Assembly (NCBI RefSeq): GCF_905237065.1
Contig: NC_059444.1
Coordinates: 51,942,644 to 52,006,643, forward strand
DNA from: Salmo salar
Lineage: Eukaryota
Direction: 5' to 3'
DNA length: 64,000 bases
The translations under genes were made by a program, and so were the position numbers. Under the pieces are notes generated by a model that worked only from the letters and a program-made list of their open reading frames with translations, ran no database searches and was not told the origin of the DNA. Every line of letters begins with the position of its first letter. Position 1 is the stretch's first letter. Positions 8,773 to 39,900 of the stretch are shown here, in pieces.

Positions 8773-10351
8773 ACATAAAGTACCATTCAAAAGTTTGGAC
8801 ACACCTACTCATTCAAGGGTTTTTCTTTATTTTGACTATTTTCTATATTGTAGAGTAATAATGGAGACATCAAAACTATAAAATAACACATATAGAATCA
8901 TGTAATAACTAAAAAGTGTTAAACAAATCTAAATGGTTTATATTTGTGATTCTTCAAAGTAGCCACCCTTTGCCTTGATGACAACTTTGCACACTCTTGG
9001 CATTCTCTCAACCAGCTGCACCTGGAATGCTTTTCCAATAGTCTTGAATGAGTACCCACATATGCTGAGCACTTGTTGGGTGCTTTTCCTTCAGTCTGCA
9101 GTTCAACTCATCCCAAACCATCTCAATTGGGTTGAGGTCAGGTGATAGTAGAGGCCAGATCATCTGATGCAGCACTCCATCACTCTCCTTCTTGGTCAAA
9201 TAGCCCTTACACAGCCTGGAGGTGTGTTGGATCATTGTCCTGTTGAAAAACAAATGATAGTCCCACTAAGCGCAAACCAGATGGGATGGCGTATCACTGC
9301 AGAAAGCTGTGGTAGCCATGCTGGTTAGGTGTGCCTTGAATTCTAAATAAATCACTGACAGTGTCACCAGCAAAGCACCCACACACCATCACACCTCCTC
9401 CTCCATGCTTTATGGTGGGAACCACACATGCGGAGATCATCCGTTCACCTACTCTGCGTCTCACAAAGACACGGCGGTTGGAAACAAAAATCTCAAATTT
9501 GGACTCATTAGACCAAAGGGCAGATTTCCATCGGTCTAATGTCTATTGCTCGTGTTTCTTGGCCCAAGCAAGTCTCTTATTCTTATTGGTGTCCTTTTGT
9601 AGTGGTTTCTTTGCAGCAATTCGACCATGAAGGCCTGATTCACACAGTCTCCTCTGAACAGTTGATGTTGAGATGTGTCTGTTACTTTAACTCTGTGAAA
9701 CATATATTTGGGCTGCAATCTGAGGCTGGTAACTCTAATGAACTTATCCTCTGCAGCAGTGGTAACTCTGGGTCTTCCTTTGTTGTGGCAGTTCTCATGA
9801 GAGCCAGTTTCATCATAGCGACTGCACTTGAAGAAACTTTCAAAGTTCTTGAAATGTTCCAGATTAACTGACCTTCATGTCTTAAAGTAATGATGGACTG
9901 TTGTTTCTCTTTGCATATTTCAGCTGTTCTTGCCATAATATGGACTTGGTCTTTTACCAAATAGGGCTATCTTCTGTATACCACCCCTACCTTGTCACAA
10001 CACAACTGATTGGCTCAAACGCATTAAGAAGGAAAGAAATTCAACAAATTAACTTTTAACAAGGCACACCTGTTAATTGAAATGCATTCTAGGTGACTAC
10101 CTCATGAAGGTGGTTGAGAGAATGCCAAGACTCAGCAAAGCTGTCATCAAGGTAAAGGGTGGCTACTTTGAAGGATCTCAAATATAAAATACATTTTAAT
10201 TTGTTTAACACTTTTTTGGTTACTACATGATTCCATATGTGTTATTTCATTGTTTTGTTGTCTTCACTATTATTCTATGATGTAGAAAATAGTAAAAATA
10301 AAGAAAAACCCTTTAATGAGTAGGTGTGTCCAAACTTTGGACTGGTACTGT
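8773..10351 (-). mobile_element. Tc1-like DNA transposon, near full length (1.58 kb), transposase pseudogene
   Basis: Terminal inverted repeats taccattcaaaagtttggacacacctactcat (8780) and gagtaggtgtgtccaaactttggactggtactgta (10320-10351). Minus-strand ORFs 9008..9253 ([47 protein letters not shown]), 9536..9718 and 9682..9960 are frameshifted pieces of a Tc1 transposase. Confidence 0.85.
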
Positions 10352-10559: not shown

Positions 10560-11720
10560 GTCATGAAGTATCAAATCAAATAAAACTTTATTTGTTACAT
10601 GCGCCGAATACAACAGGTATTACCTTACCGTGAAATGCTTACTTACAAGCCCTTAACCAACAATGCAGTTCAAGAAAGAGTTAAGAAAATATTTACCAAA
10701 TAAACTAAAGTAAAAAATAATAAAAAGTAACAGAATAAAATAACAATAACAAGGCTATATACAGGGGGGTACTGGTACCGAGTCAATGTGCGGGGGTACA
10801 GGTTAGTCGAGGTAATTTGTACATGTAGGTAGGGGTAAAGTGACTATGCATAGATAATAAAGAGTCTCATGGCTTGGGGGTAGAAGGTGTTAAGGAGCCT
10901 TTTGGTCCTAGACTTTTTGGGCTTTCCTCTGACACTGCCTAGTATATAGTTCCTGGATGACAGGAAGCTTGGCCCCAGTGATGTACTAGGCCATATGCAC
11001 TACCCTCTGTAGCGCCTTACGATCAGATGCCGAGCAGTTGCCATACCAGGCGGTGATGCAACCGGTCATTATGCTCTTGATGGTGCAGCTGTAAAACTTT
11101 TTGAAGATCTGGGGACCCATGCCAAATCTTTTCAGTCTCCTGAGGGGGAAAAGGTGTTGTCGTGCCCTCTTCACAACTGTCTTGGTGTGTTTGGACGATG
11201 ATAGTTTGTTGGTGATGTGGACACCAAGGAACTTGAAACTCTCGACACGCTCCACTACATCCCCGTTGATGTTAATGAGGGCCTGTTCGGCCCTCCTTTT
11301 CCTGTAGTACACGATCAGCTCCTTTGTCTTGCTCACATTGAGGGAGAGGTTGTTGTCCTGGCACCACACTGCCAGGTCTCTGACCTCCTCCCTATAGGCT
11401 GTCTCATCGTTGTGGGTAATCAGGACTACCACTGTTGTGTCGTCAGCAAACTTAATGATGGTGTTGGAGTCGTGTTTGGCCACGCAGTCGTGGGTGAACA
11501 TGGAGTACAGGAGGGGACTAAGCACGCACCCCTGAGGGGCCCCAGTGTTGAGGATCAGCGTGGCAGACGTATTGTTACTTACCACCTGGGGCGGCCCGTT
11601 AGAAAGTCCAAGATCCAGTTGCAGACGGAGGTGTTTAGTCCCAGGGTCCTTAGCTTAATGATGAATTGTGTGGGCACTATGGTGTTGAACGCTGAGCTGT
11701 ATCCGACTCCTCCTTAAGAT
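10560..11720 (-). mobile_element. 5'-truncated L2-like LINE copy 1 (RT C-terminal domain plus 3' UTR)
   Basis: ORF 10986..11585 (-) carries RT motifs GAPQGCVLSPLLYSMFTHDC, FADDTTVV, FKFLGVHIT...FPLRRLKRFGMGPQIFKKFYSCTIKSIMTGCITAWYGNCSASDRKALQRVV. The 3' UTR 10560-10985 (tail ...gtaacaaataaagttttatttgatttga on the minus strand) is a common salmonid LINE tail. A second copy lies at 40570-43450. Confidence 0.75.
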
Positions 11721-15900: not shown

Positions 15901-16063
15901 ACATGTAATTCATCAAAAAAGCAGGAACACTGTAAATTCTAGCAAATTCAATGTAAAGATGATCAACGACTTATGCAGACTAACATATATCTGTTTGGAA
16001 AACCACTGAATGCATAATAAAGATGCCTACAGACACAGATACATGCCTGCCTGCCCGCCTGCC

Positions 16064-16066
<3 letters not shown>

Positions 16067-16119
<53 letters not shown>

Positions 16120-16135
16120 AGAGAGAGAAAGAGAG
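16067..16135. repeat. (AC)n microsatellite followed by (GA)n
   Basis: Direct read: ac x about 29, then agagagagagagaaagagag. Confidence 0.95.
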
Positions 16136-17284
16136 GCATAAATACACATGCACCCTCTCCACGCCCTCCCTCGCTCTTTCTCTCATGTTCAGAAGTAAAT
16201 TGCAGAATGAACAAATGACTGGTGCATTCTCTCAGACACACGCGCGCGCACCATAGTCTGCATGCACACACAATGATGACACACCCACTTTAGACCGCAC
16301 ATGCAGTGCATACTGTACACTACAGATTGGCTACTGTACACTACAGATAGCATAATATGAACAAAATCACATAGAAACCGCATGGTATCCACCTAGGCCT
16401 ACCTGATCTTATTGAGTGACATGAAACATTATCCTTAACATTTTGCTTTTCTTGATCACGATTCCAAATATTACAGAAAATGCAATGTGTAGTAAAAAAG
16501 AGAACACAAGTTCAGTAAGCTACGATTAAAATCTCCACCCAGAATTCGCCAAATTGTATTTTTCTTTTGATACAAGCTATGGTAAACAGTAACGGTAAAA
16601 TTAGGCTACAGACCACGCCGTGGGATGTCAAATTGCGCTCTTGTGCTTGCTATGTTGCTACCTCATCTCTCTCTCTCTCTCTTTTGTTCAACGGCGCTGC
16701 AAGATTGTGGAGAGGGAGGGGGAGGCTGGGAAGGGGAGGCAGGAAACTCCTGTGCCCGGAGGCGGGTAGAGAGGAGGGGTGAGAGGGAGAAGTCGACGCA
16801 GCACATGCAATAGGATGGTTTCGCTCGCTTATCTCTCTTGCCCTGCTTTCCTTTCTTTTTTTCTCTCAGGCTCTATTTCGCTGATGGGGCAAATAGTTTA
16901 CCAACGCGCCACTTGCGCCGTCCACATACCAATTTAGCTAGTCATACCCCCTCCAGCGTTCCTTTGTGGCTGGTGCACTGACCGACTAATGTTAGCCTAT
17001 ATTTATTAATATAATCATGTGGTCAATATTGTTGACAGTATTCACCAGCAATTGAAAATACAGTGCATGCTTGGCTATTATTTGGTCATGTCTGGCCCAA
17101 CTTTGCTCATCGCACCTGAAGTGGAGATATACAGTACCAGCCAGGCCGAGCCATGAGGGATACTTTAGTGTTGTATGCTAGCGACGTCCTGTGGACAGAA
17201 ATTGTACACACAGCCTAAACATAAAAAATACAATAGAGTTACACAAGGGACCTCCCTCCTGTATGTTTATTTTAATGTTGTTTA

Positions 17285-25331: not shown

Positions 25332-28154
<2,823 letters not shown>

Positions 28155-29615: not shown

Positions 29616-29884
29616 CTAGCAGAGAGGAGAGGAGAGAGAGAGAGAAGGGACAGAGAGATAAGGAGAGGGAGGGAAAGTGAGAGAGAGAAGGGACAGAGAG
29701 ATAAGGAGAGGGAGGGAAAGTGAGAGAGAGAAAGAGTGAGACAGTGTGAAAGGACCGAATGTACATTGAATGGATTGTGTACCAGCCAAACCAGACAGTC
29801 CTGTTTAGGATCGTCGTTGTATTTGACTAAGGTCCATTTGTTTCCCCTCCCATCTGCATTTAAATTATTCCACCCTTACCTCAC

Positions 29885-30439: not shown

Positions 30440-31043
30440 CTGAGAGTGAAAAAAAACATGAATTCATTTAGGCAGGTCCTAAGAAACATCATAAGACTAA
30501 TAAAATGTATTTTCAAAAGAATAGAAGAGCATATTGAGTTTAAATTAGGCCTTTGTTACAGGTCAGTGCATTTTTTATCCACATTTCAGCCCTTTCCTAA
30601 CCTCACTCACCCTCGTTAGGGAGAAGGCATAGGATCTTATCTTCATCATGATACCGATAGAAAATAATACCAATCCTATTTTCAAAAGCATGCGAGTGTC
30701 ATTCATATTTCACAACCTCCGCGGGTTTTTGGAGTTGGCTATACGCAAGCAAAATAATAGGCCTACTCTTGATTTAGGCTACATTATTGCATGCTCAGTG
30801 GCGACCCGTCATTCAGGGCTGCCCCACCCGTTTTGAGCCCCACATTTTGTCATTAATGCAAGATATATAGGAGAGAGAAGGAAGGTGGGAGAGAGTAAAG
30901 GAGGGAGGGAGTAAAGGAGGGAGGGGAGGGAAAGATAAAGGGAGAGAGAAGCGAGGGCGTAAGTGATAGGTAAAGTGTAAGAGAGAAGGAGGGAGGTGGG
31001 GAGTTCTGGATAAAGTGAGGGCGAGAGAGGAGAGAGGTGTTAC

Positions 31044-31138: not shown

Positions 31139-31278
31139 CTGGACACACGCATACAGGGAATCACTCAGCTAGGTAGGTGTGTGCGCACGTCTGTGTATGA
31201 TAGCGATACAACATCTGCTACTTGTGTACATACATTAAATGTACAATAAAAAAATAAAATACAGTACAAGTGTCTCAC

Positions 31279-31410
31279 CAGTGACCCTGCGGACTCCGCT
31301 CCTGTCCACTCCCTCCTTGCGCGCTCGGAGGCGAATGGCCTGGTTCTCTCTGATCACCGTGGCCTTGATGGTTTCCAGCACCGCCACCTCCTTCCTGGGG
31401 ATGTACGTCC
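31279..31410 (-). CDS. mvp: MVP exon 4 (G)[43 protein letters not shown](G)
   Basis: Compare human [45 protein letters not shown]. Acceptor ccccatag|GGACGT, donor CACTG|gtgaga. 132 nt, phase 1 to 1. The upstream 8.5-kb intron (31411-39900) contains the gypsy tandem array. Confidence 0.9.
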
Positions 31411-31760
31411 CTATGGGGAGGGAAGAGGTTAGGGGTCAGGGGTTAAAAAAAAGCATTATTAGGCAACCAGTGTCACGACTTCCACCAAAGTCGGTTCCTC
31501 TCCTTGTTCGGGCGGCGTTCGGCAGTCGACGTCACCGGTCTTCTAGCCATCGCCGATCCACCTTTAATTTTCCATTTGTTTTGTCTTGTTCTCCCACACA
31601 CCTGGTTTACATTCCCTCATTACTTGTCGTGTATATAACCCTCTGTTCTCCCCCATGTCTGTGTGTGGAATTGTTTGTTGTTAAATGATTGTGCACTTCT
31701 GACTGGTTCGCGACGGGTTCTTTGTACCCATATTTTGTTGTTCTGGATGCCGTTGGTCTT

Positions 31761-34700
31761 GCATATTAAACTGCTCCAGTTATTTCCCAGTTCTGCTCTC
31801 CTGCGTCTGACTTCCCTGCAACCAGTCACACCCCTCTTACAGAATTCCACACCTGAATATGGAGTGAGCAGGAGCAAGTGCCCCTGGTATAGGGTGTCGA
31901 GGAGCGCATCCGGGAGCACGCGGCGATGCTCCACCATCTCTGCGCCGCAATGGACCGCTGGGAGAGACAGGGAGTTCCTCTAGTGCCTCCACCAGCACAA
32001 CCGGGGTCTCCACTACTCACCCCCCTGCACCCGGTCCCAGTGGGATTCGTCTCGCCCTTCCCCGGGAGTACTGTGGGACAGCTGCATGTTGCCAGGGTTT
32101 CCTGTTGCAGCTGGATCTTTACCTGGCAACCGTCAACCCGGCTCCTTCGGGCCGTGAGAGGGTGTCCACCCTGGTCTCGTGTCTCTCGGGGAAAACCCTG
32201 GAGTGGGCCAACCCCGTGTGGGGAGAAGGCGATGCGGCGCTGGACCATTTAGAGGATTTCACTCGCCACTTCCGGGCAGTCTTCGAAACATGTCTCCGAT
32301 TCCCTGCGTCAGGGGTTCATTTGGTCCTCTACTTCACCCGCCTCCTTGAGTTTCTTTTTTGTGAAGAAAAAGGAGGGAGGTCTGCGCCCGTGTATTGACT
32401 TCGAGGCCTAAACCAGATCACTGTGAGATACAGTTACCCGCTACCTCTCATAGCCACAGCGATTGAGTCAATGCACGGGGCGCACTTCTTCACCAAACTA
32501 GATCTCAGGAGCGCTTACAACCTGGTGCGTATCCGGGATGGAGACGAGTGGAAGACGACGTTCAGTACTACTCAGGGCATTATGAGAACCTCGTCATGCC
32601 GTACGGGTTGATGAATGCTCCATCAGTCTTCCAAGCCTTTGTAGACAAGATTTTTAGGGACCTGCACGGCCAGGGTGTAGTGGTGTATATTGATGACATT
32701 CTGATTTACTCCGCTACACGCGCCGAGCATGTGTCCCTGGTGTGCAGGGCGCTTGGTCGACTGTTGGAGCATGACCTGTACGTCAAGGTTGAGAAATGCC
32801 TGTTCTTCCAGCAGTCCGTCTCCTTCCTAGGGTACCGCATTTCCACCTCAGGGGTGGAGATGAAGAGTGACCGCATTTCAGCCGTGTGTAATTGGCCGAC
32901 TCCCACCACGGTAAAGGAGGTGCAGCGGTTTCTAGGGTTTGCCAATTACTACCAGAGGTTTAGCCGGGGTTTTGGTCAGGTAGCGGCTCCCATTACCGCA
33001 CTGCTGAAGGGGGGCACGGTACGTTTGCAGTGGTCGGCTGAGGCGGACAGGGCTTTTGGTCACCTGAGGGCTCCGTTTACCTCGGCTCCCGTGCTGGCCC
33101 ATCCGGATCCCTCTTTGGCGTTCATAGTGGAGGTGGACGTGTCTGAGGCTGGGATAGGAGCCGTGCTCTCTCAGCGCCCCGGTACGCCACCGAAGCTCCG
33201 CCCCTGTGCCTTCTTCGAGGAAGCTCAGCCCGGCGGAGTGAAACTATGACGTGGGGGACCGGGAGCTGTTGGTTGTCGTCAAGGCGTGGAGACATTGGCT
33301 TGAGGGAGCTAAACACTCTTTTCTCATCCGGACTGACCACCGCAATCTGGAGTACATCCGGGCAGCGAGGAGACTGAACCCTCGCCAGGCAAGGTGGGCC
33401 ATGTTTTTCAACCGTTTTCTTTTCATCCTTTCTTACAGACCAGGTTCCCAGAACGTGAAGGCAGATGCACTGTCCCGGCTCTATGACACAGAGGAGCGAC
33501 CCATGGATCCCATCCCCATACTCCCGGCCTCCTGCCTGTGAGGGAGGGAGCTGGACGCGGACATTGAGCAGGCATTAGGTGCAGAGCCCGCTCCCCTCCA
33601 GTGTCCCGCTGGGCATCTGTACGTTCCGTCTGCCGTCCGTGACCGGCTGATCTATTGGGCCCACACGTCACCCTCCTCTGGTCATCCAGGCATCGGTCGG
33701 ACGGTGCGCTATCTGAGTGGGAAGTACTGGTGGCCCACTTTGGCTAAGGACGTGAGGGTTTATGTTTCCTCCTGCTCAGTATGCGCCCAGTGTAAGGCTC
33801 CTCGGCACCTGCCCAGAGGTAAGCTACACCCCTTGCCCGTTCCACAACGGCCTTGGTTGCACCTGTCGGTCGATTTCCTTACCGATCTTCCGCCCTCACA
33901 GGGTAACAAAATGATCCTGGTCGTTGTGGACAGTTTTTCCAAGTCCTGCCGTCTCCTCCCTCTGCCCGGACTCCCTACGGCCCTACAGACTGCGGAGGCC
34001 TTGTTTACACACGTCTTCCGGCACTACAGGGTGCCTGAGGATATAGTGTCTGATCGGGGTCCCTAGTTCACTTCGAGGGTCTGGAGGGCGTTCATGGAAC
34101 GTCTGGGGTCTCGATCAGCCTTACCTCGGGTTTTCACCCGAGAGTAACAGGCAGGTGGAGAGAGTTAACCAGGATGTGGGTAGGTTTCTGCGGTCTTATT
34201 GCCAGGACTGGCCGGGGGAGTGGGCAGCGTTCGTGCCCTGGGCAGAGATGGCCCAGAACTCGCGTGGCCACTCCTCCACTAACCTTTCTCCCTTCCAGTG
34301 CGTACTGGGGTATCAGCCGGTTCTGGCTCCTCGGCAATTAGAGTCAGACCGAGGCTCCTGCGGTGGACGACTGGTTTCGGCGCGCGGAGGAGACATGGGA
34401 CGCCGCCCATGTTCACCTTCAGCGCGCCGTGCTGCGGCAGAAAGCCAGCGCAGACCGTCACCGCAGTGAGGCCCCGGTGTTCGCACCGGGTCTGGCTCTC
34501 GACCCGAAACCTGCCCCTCAGCCTGCCCTGCCGGAAGCTGGGTCCGCGGTTTGTGGGGCCGTTTAAAGTCCTGAGGAGACTGAACGAGGTGTGTTACAGG
34601 TTACAGCTCCCCCCCCAATTACCTTATTAACCTCTTCGCTATAGGGGGCAGTATTTTCACGGCCGGATAAAAAACGTACCCAATATAAACAGGTTACTAC

Positions 34701-35618
34701 TCTGGCTCAGAAACTAGAATATGCACATTATTAGTAGATTTGGATAGAAAACACTCTGGAGTTTCTAAAACTGTTTGAATGGTGTCTGTGAGTATAACAG
34801 AACTCATATGGCAGCCAAAAACCTGAGAAAATTCCAAGCAGGAAGTGGCCTGTCAGAATGTGTTCTTCTTTTGGTTCTCTATCTAAACTACAGTATCTGT
34901 GCTGTTACGTAGCACTTTCTAAGGCTTCCATTGTCTCTCTAAAGCCTTCAGAAAGTGGATTGAGGCGTCTCCTGTCTCTGGGCAGAGTTTTGTAGCTCAG
35001 TTTGTCAGTGGTCTGCCTGGTGACTAAGAGATTGGATATGCGCATTCACAAGACCACGCTGTTTTTTCTTTTCCTCTTTGAATGAATACACTATTGTCCG
35101 GTTGGAATATTAAATCGCTATTTTACGAGAAAAATACCATAAAAATGTATTTTAAACAGCGTTTGACAGGCTTCTAAGTACGGTAAAGGAACATTTAGAT
35201 TTTTTTGTCTCGAAGGTATTTGGAAATAACTATGGATTATTTGGAACAAAAACATTTCTTGTTGAAGTAGCAGTCCTGGGAGTGCATTCTGACGAATTTT
35301 TCTTATAGTAAATCTGAGTTTAGTGAGCCCTGAACTTGGCGGGTGTCAAAATAGCTAGCCGTGATGGCTGAGCTATGTACTCAGAATATTGCAAAATGTG
35401 CTTTCGCCGAAAAGCCATTTTAAAATCTGACATAGCGATTGCATAAAGGAGTTCTGTATCTATAATTCTTAAAATAATTATGTATTTTGTCAACGTTTAT
35501 GATGAGTAATTTAGTAAATTCACAGGAAGTTTTAGGTGGGAATGCATGTTCTGAACATCACATGCTAATGTAAAAAGCTGTTTTTTGATATAAATATGAA
35601 CTTGATTGAACAAAACAT
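31761..35618 (+). mobile_element. Tandem-duplicated unit 1: degenerate Ty3/gypsy LTR-retrotransposon fragment (gag piece, RT, RNase H, integrase N-terminus; multiply frameshifted) plus an ~1 kb X-family repeat (34625-35618)
   Basis: ORFs 32105..32398 (...[35 protein letters not shown], gypsy Gag core), 32548..33249 ([20 protein letters not shown]...[12 protein letters not shown]...[17 protein letters not shown]), 33251..33541 (RNase [17 protein letters not shown]...[15 protein letters not shown]), 33704..34066 (integrase HHCC finger: [38 protein letters not shown]...[20 protein letters not shown]) and 34155..34630 (integrase core continuation, frameshifted). Unit 2 is identical apart from about 3 differences. 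Confidence 0.85.
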
Positions 35619-38600
35619 GCATGTTAAACTGCTCCAGTTATTTCCCAGTTCTGCTCTCCTGCGTCTGACTTCCCTGCAACCAGTCACACCCCTCTTACAG
35701 AATTCCACACCTGAATATGGAGTGAGCAGGAGCAAGTGCCCCTGGTATAGGGTGTCGAGGAGCGCATCCGGGAGCACGCGGCGATGCTCCACCATCTCTG
35801 CGCCGCAATGGACCGCTGGGAGAGACAGGGAGTTCCTCTAGTGCCTCCACCAGCACAACCGGGGTCTCCACTACTCACCCCCCTGCACCCGGTCCCAGTG
35901 GGATTCGTCTCGCCCTTCCCCGGGAGTACTGTGGGACAGCTGCATGTTGCCAGGGTTTCCTGTTGCAGCTGGATCTTTACCTGGCAACCGTCAACCCGGC
36001 TCCTTCGGGCCGTGAGAGGGTGTCCACCCTGGTCTCGTGTCTCTCGGGGAAAACCCTGGAGTGGGCCAACCCCGTGTGGGGAGAAGGCGATGCGGCGCTG
36101 GACCATTTAGAGGATTTCACTCGCCACTTCCGGGCAGTCTTCGAAACATGTCTCCGATTCCCTGCGTCAGGGGTTCATTTGGTCCTCTACTTCACCCGCC
36201 TCCTTGAGTTTCTTTTTTGTGAAGAAAAAGGAGGGAGGTCTGCGCCCGTGTATTGACTTCGAGGCCTAAACCAGATCACTGTGAGATACAGTTACCCGCT
36301 ACCTCTCATAGCCACAGCGATTGAGTCAATGCACGGGGCGCACTTCTTCACCAAACTAGATCTCAGGAGCGCTTACAACCTGGTGCGTATCCGGGATGGA
36401 GACGAGTGGAAGACGACGTTCAGTACTACTCAGGGCATTATGAGAACCTCGTCATGCCGTACGGGTTGATGAATGCTCCATCAGTCTTCCAAGCCTTTGT
36501 AGACAAGATTTTTAGGGACCTGCACGGCCAGGGTGTAGTGGTGTATATTGATGACATTCTGATTTACTCCGCTACACGCGCCGAGCATGTGTCCCTGGTG
36601 TGCAGGGCGCTTGGTCGACTGTTGGAGCATGACCTGTACGTCAAGGTTGAGAAATGCCTGTTCTTCCAGCAGTCCGTCTCCTTCCTAGGGTACCGCATTT
36701 CCACCTCAGGGGTGGAGATGAAGAGTGACCGCATTTCAGCCGTGTGTAATTGGCCGACTCCCACCACGGTAAAGGAGGTGCAGCGGTTTCTAGGGTTTGC
36801 CAATTACTACCAGAGGTTTAGCCGGGGTTTTGGTCAGGTAGCGGCTCCCATTACCGCACTGCTGAAGGGGGGCACGGTACGTTTGCAGTGGTCGGCTGAG
36901 GCGGACAGGGCTTTTGGTCACCTGAGGGCTCCGTTTACCTCGGCTCCCGTGCTGGCCCATCCGGATCCCTCTTTGGCGTTCATAGTGGAGGTGGACGTGT
37001 CTGAGGCTGGGATAGGAGCCGTGCTCTCTCAGCGCCCCGGTACGCCACCGAAGCTCCGCCCCTGTGCCTTCTTCGAGGAAGCTCAGCCCGGCGGAGTGAA
37101 ACTATGACGTGGGGGACCGGGAGCTGTTGGTTGTCGTCAAGGCGTGGAGACATTGGCTTGAGGGAGCTAAACACTCTTTTCTCATCCGGACTGACCACCG
37201 CAATCTGGAGTACATCCGGGCAGCGAGGAGACTGAACCCTCGCCAGGCAAGGTGGGCCATGTTTTTCAACCGTTTTCTTTTCATCCTTTCTTACAGACCA
37301 GGTTCCCAGAACGTGAAGGCAGATGCACTGTCCCGGCTCTATGACACAGAGGAGCGACCCATGGATCCCATCCCCATACTCCCGGCCTCCTGCCTGTGAG
37401 GGAGGGAGCTGGACGCGGACATTGAGCAGGCATTAGGTGCAGAGCCCGCTCCCCTCCAGTGTCCCGCTGGGCATCTGTACGTTCCGTCTGCTGTCCGTGA
37501 CCGGCTGATCTATTGGGCCCACACGTCACCCTCCTCTGGTCATCCAGGCATCGGTCGGACGGTGCGCTATCTGAGTGGGAAGTACTGGTGGCCCACTTTG
37601 GCTAAGGACGTGAGGGTTTATGTTTCCTCCTGCTCAGTATGCGCCCAGTGTAAGGCTCCTCGGCACCTGCCCAGAGGTAAGCTACACCCCTTGCCCGTTC
37701 CACAACGGCCTTGGTTGCACCTGTCGGTCGATTTCCTTACCGATCTTCCGCCCTCACAGGGTAACAAAATGATCCTGGTCGTTGTGGACAGTTTTTCCAA
37801 GTCCTGCCGTCTCCTCCCTCTGCCCGGACTCCCTACGGCCCTACAGACTGCGGAGGCCTTGTTTACACACGTCTTCCGGCACTACAGGGTGCCTGAGGAT
37901 ATAGTGTCTGATCGGGGTCCCTAGTTCACTTCGAGGGTCTGGAGGGCGTTCATGGAACGTCTGGGGGTCTCGATCAGCCTTACCTCGGGTTTTCACCCGA
38001 GAGTAACAGGCAGGTGGAGAGAGTTAACCAGGATGTGGGTAGGTTTCTGCGGTCTTATTGCCAGGACTGGCCGGGGGAGTGGGCAGCGTTCGTGCCCTGG
38101 GCAGAGATGGCCCAGAACTCGCGTGGCCACTCCTCCACTAACCTTTCTCCCTTCCAGTGCGTACTGGGGTATCAGCCGGTTCTGGCTCCTCGGCAATTAG
38201 AGTCAGACCGAGGCTCCTGCGGTGGACGACTGGTTTCGGCGCGCGGAGGAGACATGGGACGCCGCCCATGTTCACCTTCAGCGCGCCGTGCTGCGGCAGA
38301 AAGCCAGCGCAGACCGTCACCGCAGTGAGGCCCCGGTGTTCGCACCGGGTCTGGCTCTCGACCCGAAACCTGCCCCTCAGCCTGCCCTGCCGGAAGCTGG
38401 GTCCGCGGTTTGTGGGGCCGTTTAAAGTCCTGAGGAGACTGAACGAGGTGTGTTACAGGTTACAGCTCCCCCCCCAATTACCTTATTAACCTCTTCGCTA
38501 TAGGGGGCAGTATTTTCACGGCCGGATAAAAAAACGTACCCAATATAAACAGGTTACTACTCTGGCTCAGAAACTAGAATATGCACATTATTAGTAGATT

Positions 38601-39476
38601 TGGATAGAAAACACTCTGGAGTTTCTAAAACTGTTTGAATGGTGTCTGTGAGTATAACAGAACTCATATGGCAGCCAAAAACCTGAGAAAATTCCAAGCA
38701 GGAAGTGGCCTGTCAGAATGTGTTCTTCTTTTGGTTCTCTATCTAAACTACAGTATCTGTGCTGTTACGTAGCACTTTCTAAGGCTTCCATTGTCTCTCT
38801 AAAGCCTTCAGAAAGTGGATTGAGGCGTCTCCTGTCTCTGGGCAGAGTTTTGTAGCTCAGTTTGTCAGTGGTCTGCCTGGTGACTAAGAGATTGGATATG
38901 CGCATTCACAAGACCACGCTGTTTTTTCTTTTCCTCTTTGAATGAATACACTATTGTCCGGTTGGAATATTAAATCGCTATTTTACGAGAAAAATACCAT
39001 AAAAATGTATTTTAAACAGCGTTTGACAGGCTTCTAAGTACGGTAAAGGAACATTTAGATTTTTTTTGTCTCGAAGGTATTTGGAAATAACTATGGATTA
39101 TTTGGAACAAAAACATTTCTTGTTGAAGTAGCAGTCCTGGGAGTGCATTCTGACGAATTTTTCTTATAGTAAATCTGAGTTTAGTGAGCCCTGAACTTGG
39201 CGGGTGTCAAAATAGCTAGCCGTGATGGCTGAGCTATGTACTCAGAATATTGCAAAATGTGCTTTCGCCGAAAAGCCATTTTAAAATCTGACATAGCGAT
39301 TGCATAAAGGAGTTCTGTATCTATAATTCTTAAAATAATTATGTATTTTGTCAACGTTTATGATGAGTAATTTAGTAAATTCACAGGAAGTTTTAGGTGG
39401 GAATGCATGTTCTGAACATCACATGCTAATGTAAAAAGCTGTTTTTTGATATAAATATGAACTTGATTGAACAAAA
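35619..39476 (+). mobile_element. Tandem-duplicated unit 2 (about 99.9% identical to unit 1), followed by a partial third start (39477-39556)
   Basis: Every ORF of unit 1 recurs with a +3858 offset (for example 32548..33249 equals 36406..37107). The differences seen are R/Q at ORF 33423/37281, an extra g at about 37962 and an extra a at about 38523. The ~78-bp segment 'aaactgctccagttatttcccagttctgctctcctgcgtctgacttccctgcaaccagtcac..' occurs at 31768, 35626 and 39486, giving an A-B-A-B-A' layout. Confidence 0.9.
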
Positions 39477-39900
39477 CATGCATGTAAACTGCTCCGGTTA
39501 TTTCCCAGTTCTGCTCTCCTGCGTCTGACTTCCCTGCAACCAGTCACGCACCTCTTACAACCAGGCTGTGTTTGGAATCGGGTACTACATACTGTTTGGA
39601 ATGTACTACGTGTCTACTACTTGTTATTTTTTTACTTGACTTTGATTATATTGTCGAGGGAGCTTGCAATAAAGTATTTCACTGAACCTTTTATACCTGC
39701 TGTAAACTGTGCAAGTGATGAATAAAATTGGATTTGACTTCAGCCAGTCAAATTAGAAACAAATTGAAAGAGCACTAGCTATCTCGTTAAAACGATGCTC
39801 TGATTTGGTTAAAAAAAAATGCATTTATCAATATGAATGCATGTAAGGACCCAAGGAAAGTTGTAATGGATGTGTTAGGAGTTGAACCCAGAGAACTCAC

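Follow-up and report, generated by a model that had tools for sequence, protein, structure and literature searches.

Anatomy of the complex in mvp

The 64-kb window of Atlantic salmon (Salmo salar) DNA analyzed here carries the gene mvp, whose exons encode the major vault protein (MVP) on the minus strand. Within this gene lies a Ty3/gypsy chromovirus joined to an interspersed repeat, X, and the two together are present as a tandem of nearly identical units. All coordinates are window positions on the forward strand. The S. salar MVP protein XP_014047827.2 is identical to the window at every alignable residue; the Salmo trutta and Salvelinus proteins differ. The complex had been assigned to mvp intron 3 in a first-pass annotation of this DNA, and tblastn likewise places it between coding exons 3 and 4, antisense to mvp.

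A self-BLAST of 28-44 kb returned one long direct match, 31760-35699 against 35618-39559, with 99.77% identity over 3943 columns, which is far beyond chance. The repeat search gave a start-to-start spacing of 3858-3861 bp and found a 75-nt segment three times. When the units proper (31766-35623 and 35624-39484) were aligned base by base, their identity was about 99.90%. A single substitution separates them (33634 C and 37492 T), along with three 1-bp length differences, all in homopolymers (G4/G5 at 34105, A6/A7 at 34669, and T7/T8 at 35200) and all with the shorter run in unit 1. The first-pass annotation had described a 3.86-kb tandem duplication of more than 99.9% identity with about three differences. 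This description essentially holds, with one substitution and three indels now counted. The three copies of a bounding segment of about 78 bp were also recovered. They measure 76 to 82 bp each and lie at 31760/31766-31841 (A1), 35618/35624-35699 (A2), and 39479/39485-39559 (A3). A1 and A2 are identical; A3 is three substitutions and one indel apart, and its homology ends exactly at ...CCTCTTACA.

The bounding segment is the end of a long terminal repeat (LTR). A complete 5' LTR runs from TGTCACGACTTCC... (31471) to ...CCCCTCTTACA (31841), directly preceded by ACCAG, and can be aligned over its full length with each LTR of the orthologous element in Salvelinus alpinus (96% identity to its 3' LTR). 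We assigned 31471-31841 as the 5' LTR because an element from Coregonus has parallel LTR ends (TGTCACGG...CCCCTCTGACA) and parallel first internal bases (GAACTACACACCTCTCATGGAATCAGCAGGAGCAGC, compared with GAATTCCACACCTGAATATGGAGTGAGCAGGAGCAAG in the window). The sequence after the 5' LTR (GAATTCCACACCTGAATATGG), where a primer-binding site would be expected, is also conserved with the Coregonus relative. The bounding segment corresponds to the last 76-82 bp of the 5' LTR, starting at its ATTAAA motif, and the third copy is a stump of the 3' LTR. In S. salar the 3' LTR is cut to 39485-39559; in the S. alpinus ortholog it is complete (369 bp). The earlier statement that there is no LTR-LTR structure is therefore wrong, as the 5' LTR is complete at 371 bp and both LTRs are full in S. 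alpinus. One pair of ACCAG target-site duplications (TSDs) encloses the whole 8.1-kb complex, and there is no second TSD. The limits bounded by these TSDs, 31466-39564, replace the range of 31761-39556 given previously.

The internal region of each unit is that of a degenerate element. Pfam domains were found in several frames in the order RVT_1, RT_RNaseH_2/RT_RNaseH, Integrase_H2C2, rve, and SH3_Tf2-1, and the internal domains of unit 1 are all broken by frameshifts. The Pfam scan of the unit gave no match for gag, of which only a BLASTP fragment was found. The protease region is missing: about 1.2 kb comprising the gag C terminus, the protease, and the N terminus of reverse transcriptase (RT) has been lost relative to the Coregonus element (BLASTN, L001). 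Judged from its sequence, this copy is non-autonomous and dead. Pfam and BLASTP thus agree with the first-pass picture of a fossil unit with gag, RT, RNase H, and integrase in different frames.

The top protein matches of the frameshift-joined pol were salmonid "Gypsy retrotransposon integrase-like" proteins. The Coregonus relative, which contains one of these proteins, shares 79% nucleotide identity over pol and has 423-bp LTRs that are 98.3% identical, with a 5-bp TSD. The S. alpinus ortholog retains a Chromo domain (Pfam, 3.2e-9) and a polypurine tract (PPT), AAGAGGGGG, directly before the 3' LTR, and both of these have been deleted in Salmo. The element can be placed among the Ty3/gypsy chromoviruses by its TG...CA LTRs, a TSD in the 4-6 bp range together with an empty site, the order RT-RNase H-integrase, and the chromodomain and PPT. 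Rfam and tRNA scans of 30-43 kb gave no match.

X is an interspersed repeat with further copies elsewhere in the window. In Salmo it replaces 617 bp of the element, namely, 330 bp at the 3' end of the internal region, chromodomain and PPT included, and 287 bp at the start of the 3' LTR. The X/LTR junction and the LTR have TGCATRT in common, suggesting a microhomology-mediated deletion.

Orthologous loci and age of the duplication

We compared the window with the mvp loci of Oncorhynchus mykiss (L005), S. alpinus (L002), and S. trutta (L004) and with an ohnologous locus of Salvelinus sp. (L003). Pairwise mismatches amounted to 3.8% between S. alpinus and S. trutta, 5.1-5.2% between O. mykiss and either of these, and 8.3-8.7% between any locus and the ohnolog. 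The four states of the site are listed in Table 1. The empty sites of the O. mykiss ortholog and the Salvelinus ohnolog carry a single ACCAG or ATCAG. The two LTRs of the S. alpinus element are 361 and 369 bp long and differ from each other by 2.8% mismatches. X is absent from the element in S. alpinus and present in S. trutta, where the junction of X with the stump (...CATGCATG-TAAACTG...) is the same as that of the third segment in S. salar. Among the loci compared, the duplication was found only in S. salar. It postdates the insertion, because S. alpinus and S. trutta have single-copy states at the same site. A model of unequal exchange needs a single-copy A-B-A' precursor, and the sister species, S. 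trutta, has this arrangement.

These loci also bear on whether the tandem could have arisen in the course of reverse transcription or integration and entered the site already doubled, or whether two insertions occurred independently. Tandem LTR retrotransposons with one TSD have been proposed to insert in preformed condition (PMC11899658 and bioRxiv 10.1101/452573). For the salmon complex, insertion as a preformed tandem or as two elements is refuted by the orthologous single-copy loci, which share the site and the TSD in S. alpinus and S. trutta, and by the junction alignment described below. Reverse transcription could not produce an 82-bp stump beside the non-retroviral X, and a second TSD is lacking. 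We consider such an origin to have practically no chance of being correct.

Two further features of the site were noted. A 668-bp deletion private to S. trutta (equivalent to window 34148-34815) removed the 3' end of the integrase and the first ~185 bp of X, so that the integrase/X junction can be read only in S. salar. Both Salmo species compared (S. salar, S. trutta) and S. alpinus carry the insertion, yet the O. mykiss ortholog is empty. The accepted tree is (Salmo,(Salvelinus,Oncorhynchus)), and on this tree the pattern of presence and absence implies incomplete lineage sorting or a locally different genealogy.

The duplication is recent. The divergence between units is 1 substitution in 3858 bp (0.026%), against mismatches of about 3.0-3.9% when S. 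salar is compared with S. trutta across this interval, in line with the first-pass proposal that the duplication is far younger than the element. Because both divergences scale as 2 x rate x time, the age of the duplication would be about 0.8% of that of the salar-trutta split, with a Poisson range for one event of approximately 0.02-4%. The split is of the order of 10 million years old. With this value, the duplication would be about tens of thousands of years old and less than approximately half a million. Comparison with the outgroups indicates that the change at 33634 is derived in unit 1 (T>C), as are two of the homopolymer contractions.

Table 1. Features of the complex and its surroundings in the window, and states of the insertion site at the mvp loci compared
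Feature	Location	Strand	Basis or description
mvp coding exon 4, downstream border of host intron	31274..31420	-	tblastn; ends approximate
Left TSD, ACCAG	31466..31470	+	Same ACCAG-TGTCACG junction in S. trutta and S. alpinus
Complete 5' LTR, 371 bp	31471..31841	+	TG...CA, TATATAA and ATTAAA motifs; matches both S. alpinus LTRs
A1, 5' LTR tail, left recombination repeat	31760..31841	+	Strict homology 31766-31841, preceded by TGCAT microhomology
Internal region, unit 1	31842..34629	+	Pfam, BLASTP, BLASTN
gag fragment	~32105-32290	+	BLASTP, 66% over 61 aa to gag part of salmonid gypsy protein P0156
RT	32423-33249	+	Pfam
RNase H	33251-33541	+	Pfam
Integrase H2C2/rve/SH3	33704-34629	+	Pfam
X, unit 1, ~990 bp, 3' side truncated	34630..35623	+	Alignment to 40694-42060 copy; boundary +/-2 nt
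A2, hybrid middle LTR stump and duplication junction	35618..35699	+	Seven-sequence alignment
Internal region, unit 2, copy of 31842-34629	35700..38488	+	Self-BLAST, base-by-base alignment
X, unit 2	38489..39484	+	Self-BLAST, base-by-base alignment
A3, original 3' LTR stump, last 75 bp, ends ...CTTACA	39485..39559	+	Orthologous to S. alpinus 3' LTR end and S. trutta stump
Right TSD, ACCAG	39560..39564	+	Sequence read; S. alpinus, S. trutta, and O. mykiss comparison
mvp coding exon 3, upstream border of host intron	39893..40027	-	tblastn with XP_014047827.2
X2, fuller inverted copy of X, ~1.37 kb, mvp intron 1	40694..42060	-	82-87% identical; outside the duplication
O. mykiss, ortholog	L005 9214-9220		Precise empty site ...GGCAACCAGGCTGTG...
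Salvelinus sp., ohnolog	L003		Precise empty site ...GGCAATCAGGCTGTG...
S. alpinus, ortholog	L002		Same insertion and TSD, one copy, two complete LTRs, chromodomain, PPT, no X
S. trutta, ortholog	L004		One copy, X joined to 81-bp 3' LTR stump, only two A copies
S. salar	Window		Two units, three A copies

The duplication junction and its possible origins

We examined the junction in an alignment of seven LTR tails: A1, A2, and A3 of S. salar, two from S. trutta, and two from S. alpinus. The left flank of A2 is X, as for A3, with the X-side G at 35623. From its second base on, A2 has all four 5'-LTR-type states (TT and not T, A and not G at CTCC[A/G]GTT, and, toward the end, ACC and not GCA). S. 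salar A1 and A2 alone have the A at CTCCAGTT; A3 and both copies of S. trutta and of S. alpinus have G. Because A2 shares this salar-specific A, its source was A1, and the copying took place in the salar lineage. The A2 junction is in register with the 82-bp homology, and the sequence switch falls within its first 1-7 bp, at the boundary between X (...TGCATGT) and the LTR (...TGCATATT).

The shared A in A2 also weighs against an older duplication that preceded the salar-trutta split, was homogenized by gene conversion, and collapsed in S. trutta, since outside A2 this substitution occurs only in S. salar A1. Reverse exchange can shorten a tandem array, and intra-element gene conversion is documented for LTR retrotransposons (PMC5751070). 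However, S. trutta has a plain A-B-A' arrangement, so that two extra events would be needed, and we regard an older origin as highly improbable.

The features of the junction and of the related loci are best accommodated by the following sequence of events. An internally deleted Ty3/gypsy chromovirus inserted once, anciently, between mvp coding exons 3 and 4 in antisense orientation. In the Salmo ancestor, X and an associated deletion left a 3' LTR stump of 81-82 bp, giving the locus 5'LTR(...A)-internal-X-A'. After the split from S. trutta, the 5' LTR tail on one chromatid, or on the nascent strand, would have mispaired in the S. salar lineage with the stump of the 3' LTR on the other. Exchange or template switching would then have duplicated the 3858-bp segment to give 5'LTR-internal-X-A-internal-X-A'. 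In the version with unequal exchange, the heteroduplex would have been repaired toward the A1 strand. In the version with template switching, the nascent strand would have copied all of A1 and reannealed on A3, which yields the same product and fits equally well. A reciprocal product of unequal crossover is predicted, in which the 5' LTR would be directly followed by ACCAGGCTG, a deletion resembling a solo LTR. The first-pass annotation had proposed unequal crossing-over or slippage between short direct repeats and not retrotransposition, a proposal strengthened by the single-copy A-B-A' locus of S. trutta. The ancestral repeats at both ends of the segment in S. trutta and the in-register hybrid middle repeat are those expected of non-allelic homologous recombination (NAHR). 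Directly shown are the anatomy, the order in which the events took place, the hybrid junction in register, and the recency; we infer in addition that homology-guided unequal exchange between sister chromatids or homologs, or homology-guided template switching, produced a real and selectively neutral duplication. The whole account, from one insertion through truncation by X to homology-guided exchange or template switching in S. salar, is in our judgment likely to be correct.

A switch that maps to the first 1-7 bp, at the meeting point of X and the LTR, could also be read as an event guided by microhomology only, through TGCAT/T at the X/A boundary, such as microhomology-mediated break-induced replication (MMBIR), fork stalling and template switching (FoSTeS), or the joining of ends from two sister chromatids. 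The same microhomology is also found at the older X/LTR junction left by the deletion. However, the breakpoints match the register of the 82-bp repeat, the only one in the 8-kb region, a coincidence expected in perhaps one in thousands of cases if that homology gave no guidance, and an event of this kind is very unlikely.

Several points weigh against the account of homology-guided exchange or template switching. The exchange is placed within approximately 1-7 bp of the left end of the homology. With the switch so close to the edge, a simple crossover needs co-conversion of the whole heteroduplex toward A1, and template switching fits as the alternative. A repeat of 82 bp at approximately 95% identity is also a short substrate for homologous exchange. 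The duplication is known here from one S. salar assembly. All three indels between the units are in homopolymers with unit 1 shorter and lend little support to two real copies. One-sided homopolymer shortening is also typical of residual consensus error in long-read assemblies, and the units may be even more alike than counted.

The last of these points bear on the possibility that the reference individual has one unit, which the assembler wrote twice. The near identity of the units, the fact that homopolymer length accounts for three of the four differences, each time with the shorter run in unit 1, and the single assembly on which the duplication rests would fit such an artefact. However, the hybrid junction, with the X end, the 5'-LTR-type stump, and the internal start, would require chimeric reads. 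The window contains no Ns, and there are no gaps near the complex. The 82-bp repeat should be far too short to mislead a long-read assembler, and one clean T>C, derived in unit 1 relative to both outgroups, separates the units. A real duplication is favored because the hybrid junction is absent from the single-copy allele, no gaps are present, and the repeat is short relative to long reads. An assembly artefact is unlikely, although it is the least improbable of the alternatives.

Searches outside the assembly did not bear on this point. Exact lookup of ten open reading frames (ORFs) of the window, two of them across the duplication junction, in a collection of 15 billion proteins gave none and was uninformative. 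Metagenome scans for the X/A junction in either state and for the LTR/internal junction, which any allele would carry, returned zero from a collection that does not include this locus. Neither the supplement of a 492-genome salmon structural variant (SV) paper nor the text of a 2026 preprint on SVs as expression quantitative trait loci (SV-eQTL) in salmon mentions mvp or major vault.

Neighboring repeats and relation to known tandem structures

The fuller X copy in mvp intron 1 (X2) yielded no convincing terminal inverted repeats when these were sought. TTAA flanks both ends of X2 (40687-42065), hinting at a cut-and-paste element that targets TTAA. S. trutta carries the X2 insert; S. alpinus and O. 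mykiss lack it. The site without X2 in S. alpinus has 12 extra bases, and a TTAA target duplication is a lead only. Inverted copies of X of about 1 kb bracket coding exons 2 and 3 of mvp, with a single copy in intron 1 and, since the duplication, two in intron 3; S. trutta shares the arrangement with a single partner. Complementary inverted intronic repeats promote back-splicing of exons into circular RNA. It is conceivable, although we consider it very doubtful, that the duplication segregates as a copy number variant (one, two, or more units, or the reciprocal deletion) that modulates mvp back-splicing or splicing efficiency through the X copies.

Other mobile elements are present in the window. 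At 47200-54060 (+), upstream of the mvp start codon by approximately 3 kb, lies a nearly intact BEL/Pao LTR retrotransposon. Its LTR segments 47200-47499 and 53760-54059 (300 nt each) share about 98% identity. It has an ORF of 1563 aa (48491-53182) with DUF1759, RVT_1, Peptidase_A17, and Integrase_H2C2 domains, followed by a DUF5641 ORF. From these sequence features the element looks young and is possibly active. A helix-turn-helix of a Tc1/mariner-type transposase (Pfam HTH_Tnp_Tc3_2) was found at 54735-55208, within 54570-55208 (-). Fragments at 9011-9966 (-) and 25600-26400 (-) resemble Tc1-type transposase by eye; Pfam scans of 9297-9542 and 25750-26064 within them gave no match. Two fragments of non-LTR reverse transcriptase, at 10989-11654 (-) and 42462-43614 (-), are 86-89% identical in their flanks. 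Purine-rich (AG/GGA) and (TG)n simple repeats occur in mvp introns and flanks (29621-29741, 30870-30951, 1-400, and 16030-16290).

Tandem structures of the form LTR-internal-LTR-internal-LTR, with a shared central LTR, are known from plants such as rice, from kangaroo centromeres, from TRIM arrays, and from Ty elements of yeast; among the origins proposed for them is unequal or illegitimate recombination, on homologs or sister chromatids, in which the two LTRs of a single element take part (PMC11899658). The salmon complex resembles these tandem retrotransposons in its two near-identical internal regions, three LTR-derived segments, single TSD pair, and gypsy-type affiliation. A single TSD pair around the array and very high identity between units are both part of the definition of a tandem, and the salmon complex shows both. 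In its strict form the definition calls for a complete shared internal LTR; the salmon complex falls outside it, because the shared part is the last 76-82 bp of the LTR and the unit contains an unrelated repeat. In contrast to the described tandems, the central and 3' "LTRs" are 82-bp stumps, X having taken the place of most of the 3' LTR beforehand, and the unit also carries X. For its own loci, the rice study was unable to establish whether the tandems were inserted as such or arose by recombination after insertion (PMC11899658). Unlike the rice tandems, the salmon complex has a vertebrate host, and its outgroup loci give the order, with the single copy first and the tandem later.

The formation of solo LTRs uses the same substrate, the 5' and 3' LTRs of one insertion, and the same mispairing; however, the salmon complex is a product of gain and not of loss. 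It is of the same kind as the tandem duplications that arise by NAHR or slippage in vertebrates, with which it shares the change in anatomy from A-B-A' to A-B-A-B-A', the hybrid junction repeat, and in-register breakpoints. Compared with those duplications, the salmon repeat is unusually short (82 bp, ~95%), and the switch is at its very edge. Tandem dimers of transposable elements have also been discussed as seeds of satellite DNA (PMC5932611). The salmon complex is likewise a dimer derived from a transposable element and could expand further by unequal exchange. In contrast to the seeds considered there, it has only two units, lies in a euchromatic intron, and shows no sign of further expansion.

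The complex is a truncated-LTR version of a known tandem structure and a useful example that involves no new mechanism. By itself it carries little weight, as a neutral-looking gain of 3.9 kb in an intron, antisense to mvp. Its value is that of a clean worked example, since the empty site, the insertion with two LTRs, the 3' LTR truncated by X, and the tandem dimer are all seen in related loci. The order of events is read from these loci and not assumed, because they give every intermediate state. The example would indicate that such exchange in a vertebrate can be driven by as little as an 82-bp LTR stump, and the locus is likely a copy-number-variable site, or an assembly checkpoint, in the Atlantic salmon reference.

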